A stretch of DNA of 63,845 nt from the NCBI GenBank assembly GCA_038229595.1, contig JBBROH010000003.1, positions 1-63,845 on the forward strand, given 5' to 3'. Below, piece by piece: positions 13,458 through 13,761 of the stretch (the first letter of the stretch is position 1; the number at the start of each line of letters is the position of its first letter). Both the position numbers and the translations under genes were made by a program. This stretch comes from Chloroflexia bacterium. Its GTDB lineage: Bacteria > Chloroflexota > Chloroflexia > QHBQ01. The notes beneath the pieces were generated by a model, which ran no database searches, was not told where the DNA came from, and saw only the letters and a list, made by a program, of their open reading frames with translations.

Positions 13458-13492
13458 TCTTTAGCTCCTTAGCAAGATGGGTTTTACCGCTA

Positions 13493-13565
13493 GACCGGCT
13501 GTTCGCTGCTGGCGAAGTCACGGTATCCTGGGCTGACCGGGTGTTCGCTGGGGGCGAAGTCACGG
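13493..13565 (-). repeat. Two 31-nt direct repeats with internal hairpin in the ahcY 5' leader
   Basis: 13493-13523 and 13535-13565, 28/31 identical; each contains TTCGC-N5-GCGAA. Confidence 0.8.
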
Positions 13566-13657
13566 CGTAAGGGGCTGTTTACTGCTACCCCAACGCAGAG
13601 GAAGGCGTAAGGGCTAGTGCCTGGGCAAGATGAGGGTGCGAAACACCCTGTACCTTA

Positions 13658-13687
13658 ATTGTACCAACTCCAGTGGCGGCTTGTCAA
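13658..13687 (-). promoter_or_regulatory. Sigma70-type promoter for ahcY
   Basis: TTGACA-N18-TACAAT with extended -10 TGn on the minus strand. Confidence 0.7.
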
Positions 13688-13761
13688 TAGCGGCTGCGGC
13701 TGGCAGCAAGTTAGCCGATGCACATATCGCGCAAGCCGCGTTTCGTCGGTTGGCTGCTGGC

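Follow-up and report, generated by a model that had tools for sequence, protein, structure and literature searches.

A covarying tandem hairpin upstream of ahcY in one order of Chloroflexota, a candidate cis-regulatory RNA

To our knowledge, the control of ahcY is poorly understood outside the Proteobacteria and Actinobacteria. Among the closest described systems is the SAH riboswitch (RF01057), a pseudoknot-containing class that occupies the 5' leader of ahcY, senses the toxic product and turns on the hydrolase; it is a single element with a model of about 78 positions. The SAM-Chlorobi motif, which we take to be Rfam RF01724, is an orphan, lineage-restricted element in the 5' UTRs of metK/ahcY operons with a strong promoter, and the SAM-I riboswitch (RF00162) folds into a four-way junction of 108 positions. 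In other bacteria, ahcY is under the control of SAH riboswitches (PMC2864571, in part). The SAM/SAH riboswitch (RF01727), very small and of narrow phylogenetic range, responds to a metabolite of the SAM cycle, and is described as an OFF switch before metK, with a 14-nt terminal loop, 12 strictly conserved bases and a pseudoknot to the ribosome-binding site (PMC6411933, in part). Finally, the guanidine-II riboswitch (mini-ykkC) consists of very small, similar hairpins in tandem with few conserved bases; its four-base terminal loops are conserved, the two hairpins must dock, and a single one works poorly (PMC9481103, in part).

We compared these systems with the ahcY leader in 63,845 nt of contig JBBROH010000003.1 of a Chloroflexia bacterium (the whole stretch is referred to as the window), for which a sequence-only reading had proposed a long, structured SAM/SAH-related cis-regulatory RNA. 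The motif described here shares its position with RF01057 and would share its logic; it differs in being built of 31-nt internal-loop hairpins in tandem, and the RF01057 model (threshold 37 bits) did not reach its gathering score anywhere in the window, nor did it match 13400–13800 at E ≤ 10. Small size and narrow range recall RF01727, whereas the terminal loops of our motif are free, its conserved bases are internal, pairing to the ribosome-binding site is not kept, the gene is ahcY, and the RF01727 model did not match. The SAM-Chlorobi model likewise gave no match, and that motif belongs to a different phylum. In contrast to guanidine-II, conservation lies in the internal loop, the terminal loops are variable, and a unit can stand alone, as it does in G006, G008, G016 and all seven motif-bearing genomes of the family termed f2 below. 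SAM-I shares the genome with the motif and, in two related genomes (G008 and G010), also the operon; it precedes metK, a Cys/Met enzyme gene and, in these two, pfkB, not directly ahcY, and is a neighbor of the motif and no relative. The sequence-only reading could not match the SAH, SAM-I, II or III or SAM-SAH consensus, and none of these classes was recovered here either: searched against the covariance models of Rfam 15, the whole window returned no match at gathering score, and 13400–13800 returned at E ≤ 10 only a chance toga_FSE match on the opposite strand. The leaders of seven relatives (E ≤ 5) yielded only SAM-I before pfkB and chance miRNA and flavivirus matches. We found no description of the motif in the searchable literature on ahcY riboswitches or noncoding-RNA motifs, in which a single class of SAH-selective riboswitch and no 'SAH-II' appeared; the main text of a 224-motif study is without an ahcY or Chloroflexi entry (PMC5737381).

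On the minus strand of the window, ahcY (12087–13457) encodes an adenosylhomocysteinase of 456 residues (Pfam AdoHcyase, 5.9e-62; NCBIfam TIGR00936, 625.6 bits against a cut-off of 497.6). Upstream on the same strand lies pfkB (13762–14730, probable GTG start at 14730; Pfam PfkB, 9.5e-41), encoding a PfkB-family kinase whose top NCBIfam match, 'nucleoside kinase', falls under that model's cut-off; its genomic context suggests an adenosine kinase. pfkB has a promoter-like site of its own (TTGCAA-17-TATATT; window 14731–14865, minus strand) and a leader of about 100 nt, in which a CCUCC-like stretch of a hairpin pairs with GGGAG just 5' of the Shine-Dalgarno (SD) sequence and the GTG start; compared with Rfam, the pfkB leader gave no match at E ≤ 10. 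The near-consensus promoter claimed for ahcY is present as a sigma-70-like site at 13658–13687 (minus strand; TTGACA at 13687–13682, an 18-nt spacer and TACAAT at 13663–13658) with 11 of 12 matches and a TG before the −10 hexamer, against 0.2 such sites in shuffles of the region. Transcription is predicted from this site to start near 13651, giving a leader of ~190 nt up to the ATG at 13457. The site is kept in the congener, and promoter-like sites with 10 of 12 matches precede the G003 and G004 arrays; none was found in G002. Directly upstream of the −35 hexamer (window 13694–13748), the congener has 67 different letters replacing 53, and contigs from three metagenome runs share the congener's 67-letter flank, so that promoter and leader are kept and the flank is not. 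In contigs of three DNA runs, the leader repeats the congener's variant only.

Several smaller features of this leader had been pointed out and could be recovered. The 5'-terminal hairpin AGGGUG-UUUCG-CACCCU (13633–13649, minus strand) folds in both the MFE and the centroid structure; it is identical in the congener and absent from the other genera examined, and may stabilize the 5' end. Both additional repeats are present, CCCTTACGCC twice, 40 nt apart (D6), and CATCTTGC twice (D4). Along with the 5' hairpin, CCCUUACGCC and CAUCUUGC are kept in the congener only and were not seen in other genera. A further hairpin, CCCUUACGC-CUUCCUCU-GCGUUGGGG (13588–13613, minus strand), lies outside the conserved motif and differs at three bases in the congener; because the sequence on its 5' side is a repeat of that 5' of unit 1 (D6), it may be a decayed third unit. 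The SD sequence AGGAG (13465–13469, minus strand) is positioned 7 nt 5' of the ahcY ATG and 24 nt 3' of unit 2. Since the 5' hairpin, CCCUUACGCC and CAUCUUGC are shared with the congener only, we consider the ~31-nt hairpin, and not the long leader, to be the functional unit. Consistent with this, the folding energy of the whole leader equals that of shuffles (z = −0.04), which places the signal in two small units and not in a large fold. The original proposal of a long structured cis-regulatory leader is thus supported in part: the tandem unit, which is conserved, covarying, ahcY-specific and downstream of a promoter-like site, makes a good candidate, and the ~190-nt leader as a single structured whole is not supported.

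The two units of 42 nt follow each other directly (13535–13576 and 13493–13534, minus strand), and their 31-nt cores agree at 28 of 31 positions, as reported; two of the three differences, described earlier as confined to loop and bulge, affect the terminal loop, and the third is the N of CANC. The core pattern matched twice in the window and never in 100 shuffles. In unit 1 (core 13536–13566, minus strand; alignments A2 and A7), the outer stem P1 pairs GCCG (13566–13563) with CGGU (13539–13536) and is followed by UGAC (13562–13559), the inner hairpin P2, UUCGC-CCCCA-GCGAA (13558–13544), and CACC (13543–13540). Unit 2 (core 13494–13524, minus strand) has the same order, with P1 ACCG/CGGU (13524–13521 with 13497–13494), UGAC (13520–13517), P2 UUCGC-CAGCA-GCGAA (13516–13502) and CAGC (13501–13498). 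Across the relatives, the motif can be described as a P1 stem of 3–5 bp, a 4×4 internal loop (5'-UGAC/5'-CANC) and a variable hairpin P2. Seven internal-loop bases, the four of UGAC and the C, A and C of CANC, do not vary among the 31 units, and the N of CANC is mostly U or C, with G in two units and A in two. P1 reads CCG/CGG in family f1, CCA/UGG in f3 and ACG/CGU in f2, and the stem, loop and length of P2 differ even among units of a single leader. Units are 29–37 nt long, with a UGAC-CANC spacing of 11–19 nt in the short form and 31–33 nt in the long form found in f2, where the hairpin GUGUUG-AGGGAGC-AACAC lengthens P2 and an outer helix lengthens P1.

Covariation was quantified on alignment A7, which comprises 31 units from 19 published genomes, without G012. 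Six of the seven stem pairs change on both sides, so the relatives' leaders do covary, and pairing is present in 95.7% of cells, a share that is partly circular because the units were first collected by a script requiring pairing. The covariation score of 0.562 compares with 0.184 in shuffles, none of 500 of which reached the observed value, and with at most 0.099 for slid partners; since the covarying states follow the three families, the score reflects few independent events. RNAalifold, given only the alignment (without G012), predicted the same P1 and P2 with UGAC and CANC unpaired. The motif thus shows the covarying stems around invariant unpaired bases by which we recognize a riboswitch candidate. 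G-U pairs occur four times at one P1 pair and once in P2 which, together with the constant orientation relative to ahcY, identifies the sense RNA as the folded strand. Although the units, read as DNA, form imperfect palindromes, a DNA operator is difficult to reconcile with UGAC-CANC spacings of 11 to 33 nt, with halves that are not mutual complements, with stems that change sequence yet keep their pairs, and with G-U pairs that work on one strand only. Comparison with the congener, whose AhcY is 99% identical, points in the same direction for the conservation of the element: units and linker carry no change in 84 nt while 33 of 238 four-fold sites of ahcY differ (13.9%, P about 4e-6), and the rest of the leader shows nine changes in 110 nt and one indel.

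Next, we asked where else the motif occurs, using covariance models R1 (built from 20 units) and R2, derived from alignments A2 and A6, respectively, both of which include the three G012 units. In the 4.25-Mb assembly of the window (87% complete), R1 found two significant matches, unit 1 at 38.8 bits (E = 6e-7 for the whole genome) and unit 2 at 33.4 bits (E = 2.3e-5), both in the ahcY leader, with the next match at 20.4 bits; blastn-short of the 31-mer against the same assembly found no copy outside this leader. Over the 40 genomes of the order, all 27 R1 matches of at least 32.9 bits lie upstream of ahcY on the same strand, and two further matches at ~27 bits fall within those ahcY-upstream arrays. 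All 29 short-form and seven long-form units are accordingly upstream of ahcY in sense orientation, and a REP- or MITE-like repeat, with its expected dispersed copies, is at odds with a motif that has no other copy in the genome and none away from ahcY in 40 genomes. Weak covariance-model matches in G035 (C393) and G030 (C17) lie within long reading frames and were treated as chance. Together, these data show that the motif is structured and conserved, which strand folds, and that the motif is tied exclusively to ahcY.

To define the distribution, ahcY was located in 58 of 61 related genomes and the upstream regions were read. The order is represented by 40 genomes, of which G018, G026 and G037 gave no ahcY and G028 ends 70 nt upstream of it; the motif is present in 20 of the 36 with a readable ahcY upstream region, and in all three families. 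It occurs in five of five f1 genomes, in eight of eight f3 genomes with ahcY (including the unpublished G012) and, as the long form, in seven of 23 f2 genomes. The number of units per leader varies from one to four, always in sense orientation. In f1, there are two in G000 and G001, three in G003 and four in G002 and G004; in f3, one each in G006, G008 and G016, two each in G020 and G022, three each in G010 and G012, and at least one in G014, where the contig ends. In f2, a family of one genus, the carriers (G009, G013, G017, G023, G027, G030 and G039) have a single long-form unit each. No motif was found in the ahcY upstream region of the 16 other f2 genomes searched with filters off, a count that, like the tree below, includes the unpublished G007, G015 and G034. 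In an AhcY tree of 29 rows, midpoint-rooted only and leaving out G012, G006, G016, G022, G013, G025, G033 and G036, the 14 rows of f2 that lack the motif group as a single clade (99/99) within f2, and the six long-form rows fall outside it. The simplest history suggested by these sequences is an ancestral motif with one loss inside one genus. Judged by its distribution, the motif dates back to before the order split into its three families and has been retained.

Outside the order, 180 ahcY loci were searched without finding the motif; some of them end short upstream. The loci comprise the regions preceding ahcY in 20 genomes of seven further families in the class (R2 with filters off), which also matched no Rfam family; three more regions of the class, from paralogues and a 21st genome; 79 loci of other lineages from a genome collection (R1); and at least 80 metagenome loci (R1), with AhcY identities of up to 69% among the matches listed. 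The genome-collection search had returned 80 loci in all which, apart from the congener, belong to other lineages at 56–65% identity. Re-searching 100 of the genome-collection and metagenome loci with R2 gave the same result. A pattern scan of 401 genomes of the phylum produced scattered single matches and no adjacent pair among the matches listed, in a scan whose reversed-pattern control was not formally compared.

We also examined the genes around ahcY. In the window's genus (f1) and in genus g4 of f3, pfkB lies directly upstream; in G003 (f1), it is not adjacent. Upstream of its ahcY promoter, G003 has a weak IS200-like transposase frame that scores under the Pfam cut-off (L033:636–1133, plus strand), in the place held by pfkB in other genomes. 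The order in f2 is pfkB, a receiver gene, the motif, ahcY, an MBL-fold gene and metK, and in the motif-less f2 genomes read, the receiver-domain gene abuts ahcY; the neighbors of the window's ahcY include no counterpart of this gene. A conserved ahcY partner gene was sought and none was found, the downstream genes being unrelated between genera. SAM-I riboswitches stand about 80 nt before pfkB in G008 (57.5 bits; L046:3950–4077, minus strand) and G010 (72 bits; L048:4082–4210, minus strand), against a cut-off of 44.4, giving the operon order SAM-I, pfkB, motif, ahcY and placing the PfkB kinase of these genomes in the SAM regulon. SAM-I was not found at the loci of G006, G016, G020 and G022, and the G012 contig is cut at that place. 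The window's genome has three SAM-I elements, all outside the window (C284:1910–2015, plus; C92:15892–15995, minus; C70:8293–8405, plus), one of them before metK and one before a gene for a Cys/Met PLP enzyme.

No conserved route from the hairpins to gene expression emerged from these leaders. We looked for an expression platform, either a terminator or an SD-sequestering helix, as expected of a riboswitch candidate, and found none that is conserved; the leaders of G000, G003 and G004 contain no intrinsic terminator, and the last unit ends anywhere from 35 to about 300 nt before the ATG. Complementarity between unit and SD region was notable in three of 30 units, namely units 2 and 3 of G012 (p = 0.006 and 0.034) and the unit of G008 (p = 0.032); this is close to chance overall, and a general anti-SD pairing by the units was rejected. 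Modeling with the units forced to form, performed without a shuffled control, raised SD exposure by more than 0.05 in 10 of 15 leaders and lowered it by 0.06 in the window's own leader, likewise without such a control, and is at most weakly suggestive of a switch output. Separately, some leaders carry repeats: the long unit-to-ahcY stretch of G014 (L056:60–350) is full of GGGGTCA-type short tandem repeats and also holds two copies of a ~90-nt segment, a CAA-rich, G-poor repeat, CAACAACUAA, lies between unit and SD in G008 (L046:2865–2899, minus strand), and GACAAC repeats lie upstream of the long form in G030 (L036:1200–1260). The CAA-rich repeats of G008 and G030 could be unstructured standby or Rho-loading stretches.

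The recurrence of the hairpin before ahcY in related uncultured bacteria makes it probably a new regulatory RNA. Our leading interpretation, held tentatively and at a little less than an even chance, is a new ahcY-specific cis-regulatory RNA that is most likely a small tandem sensor of S-adenosylhomocysteine (SAH) or a related metabolite. We infer that the ahcY mRNA would carry the motif as a cis-acting element, in which each hairpin would work as a small aptamer, on its own or alongside up to three others in tandem. Such an aptamer would report on the state of the methyl cycle, with SAH as the obvious candidate ligand, and binding would raise ahcY expression, an ON switch in keeping with the logic of the known SAH riboswitch. 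Because the genome reads SAM through SAM-I and ahcY alone bears the motif, the signal is presumably separate from SAM, which makes SAH the first guess; the order SAM-I, pfkB, motif, ahcY in G008 and G010 likewise suggests a second input distinct from SAM. A more specific version, in which the hairpin represents the aptamer of a second class of SAH riboswitch with no structural relation to the first (or else recognizes adenosine or homocysteine) and acts as one to four independent units without a classical platform, is possible, if on the doubtful side. Tandem arrays of up to four copies of one aptamer class have been described (PMC9481103, in part). Against a sensor, SAH and SAM-SAH riboswitches are listed in Table 3 of the same source as never seen in tandem, and seven conserved bases make a small pocket. 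The SAM-Chlorobi motif, an orphan before metK/ahcY, showed no SAM or SAH binding in preliminary probing (PMC2864571, in part), a warning for the guess of SAH as ligand.

The main rival, which we rate as somewhat unlikely, holds that the hairpins are protein-binding sites controlling translation, stability or termination of the ahcY message. It draws on the same structure and conservation as the riboswitch reading, and an invariant internal loop flanked by stems of free sequence resembles many protein-recognition hairpins. Copy number varies with no expression platform between the copies, and no rule of unit-SD pairing was found; three or four platform-less aptamers in a row are unusual for riboswitches and common for protein-binding arrays. 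The protein might be an RNA-binding regulator, or AhcY or PfkB acting on its own operon, with one to four sites setting the number of bound copies. No candidate protein was identified, however, and the neighbors of ahcY are not kept between genera: pfkB is separated from ahcY in G003, and the f2 receiver (REC) gene has no equivalent beside the window's ahcY. Given that no output side was found and that platform-less arrays reach four units, this explanation stays a serious rival.

It is considerably less probable that the units are passive structures sensing no signal, such as exonuclease barriers, RNase sites uncoupling ahcY from pfkB, or elements of ribosome handling at the pfkB stop. The stop UAG of pfkB does sit directly 5' of the first unit in four g4 genomes (G020, G008, G010 and the unpublished G012), the pfkB frame of G006 ends at the UGA of the invariant UGAC loop, and a passive role would fit the lack of an expression platform. 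Yet such structures have no need for seven invariant unpaired bases across three families, the f1 units have a promoter-like site of their own upstream and are separated from the pfkB stop by about 200 nt, and the g5 units do not abut a long frame. At these g4 junctions (loci L072, L038, L046 and L048), the pfkB frame reaches the first unit, with UAG-CCA-UGA in frame in G020, G008 and G010. Finally, that the motif is not an RNA element at all, being instead a DNA operator, a repeat of the REP or MITE kind or a leader peptide with the RUG of RUGAC as its start codon, is very improbable in light of the spacing, pairing and copy-number evidence above, and although RUG could be a start codon and the window's two units, 42 nt apart, are in frame, the leader peptide was rejected on frame, since the frame of G003 unit a stops after five codons, no SD sequence was seen by eye before RUG, and CANC has no fixed frame relative to RUG because unit lengths of 29–37 nt are not multiples of three.

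For the metabolite-sensing reading, the motif is short and sharply defined, so that a handful of synthetic RNAs would suffice to test for a ligand directly. If the hairpin is indeed an SAH aptamer, it would be among the smallest natural aptamers and, in some genomes, would be stacked behind SAM-I in an operon that reads SAM and SAH separately; the arrangement SAM-I, pfkB, motif, ahcY would then make a natural two-signal operon. For these uncultured Chloroflexota, the motif would be either a very compact new aptamer, useful in RNA structural studies and as a building block for sensors, or the handle of an RNA-binding regulator of the methyl cycle.
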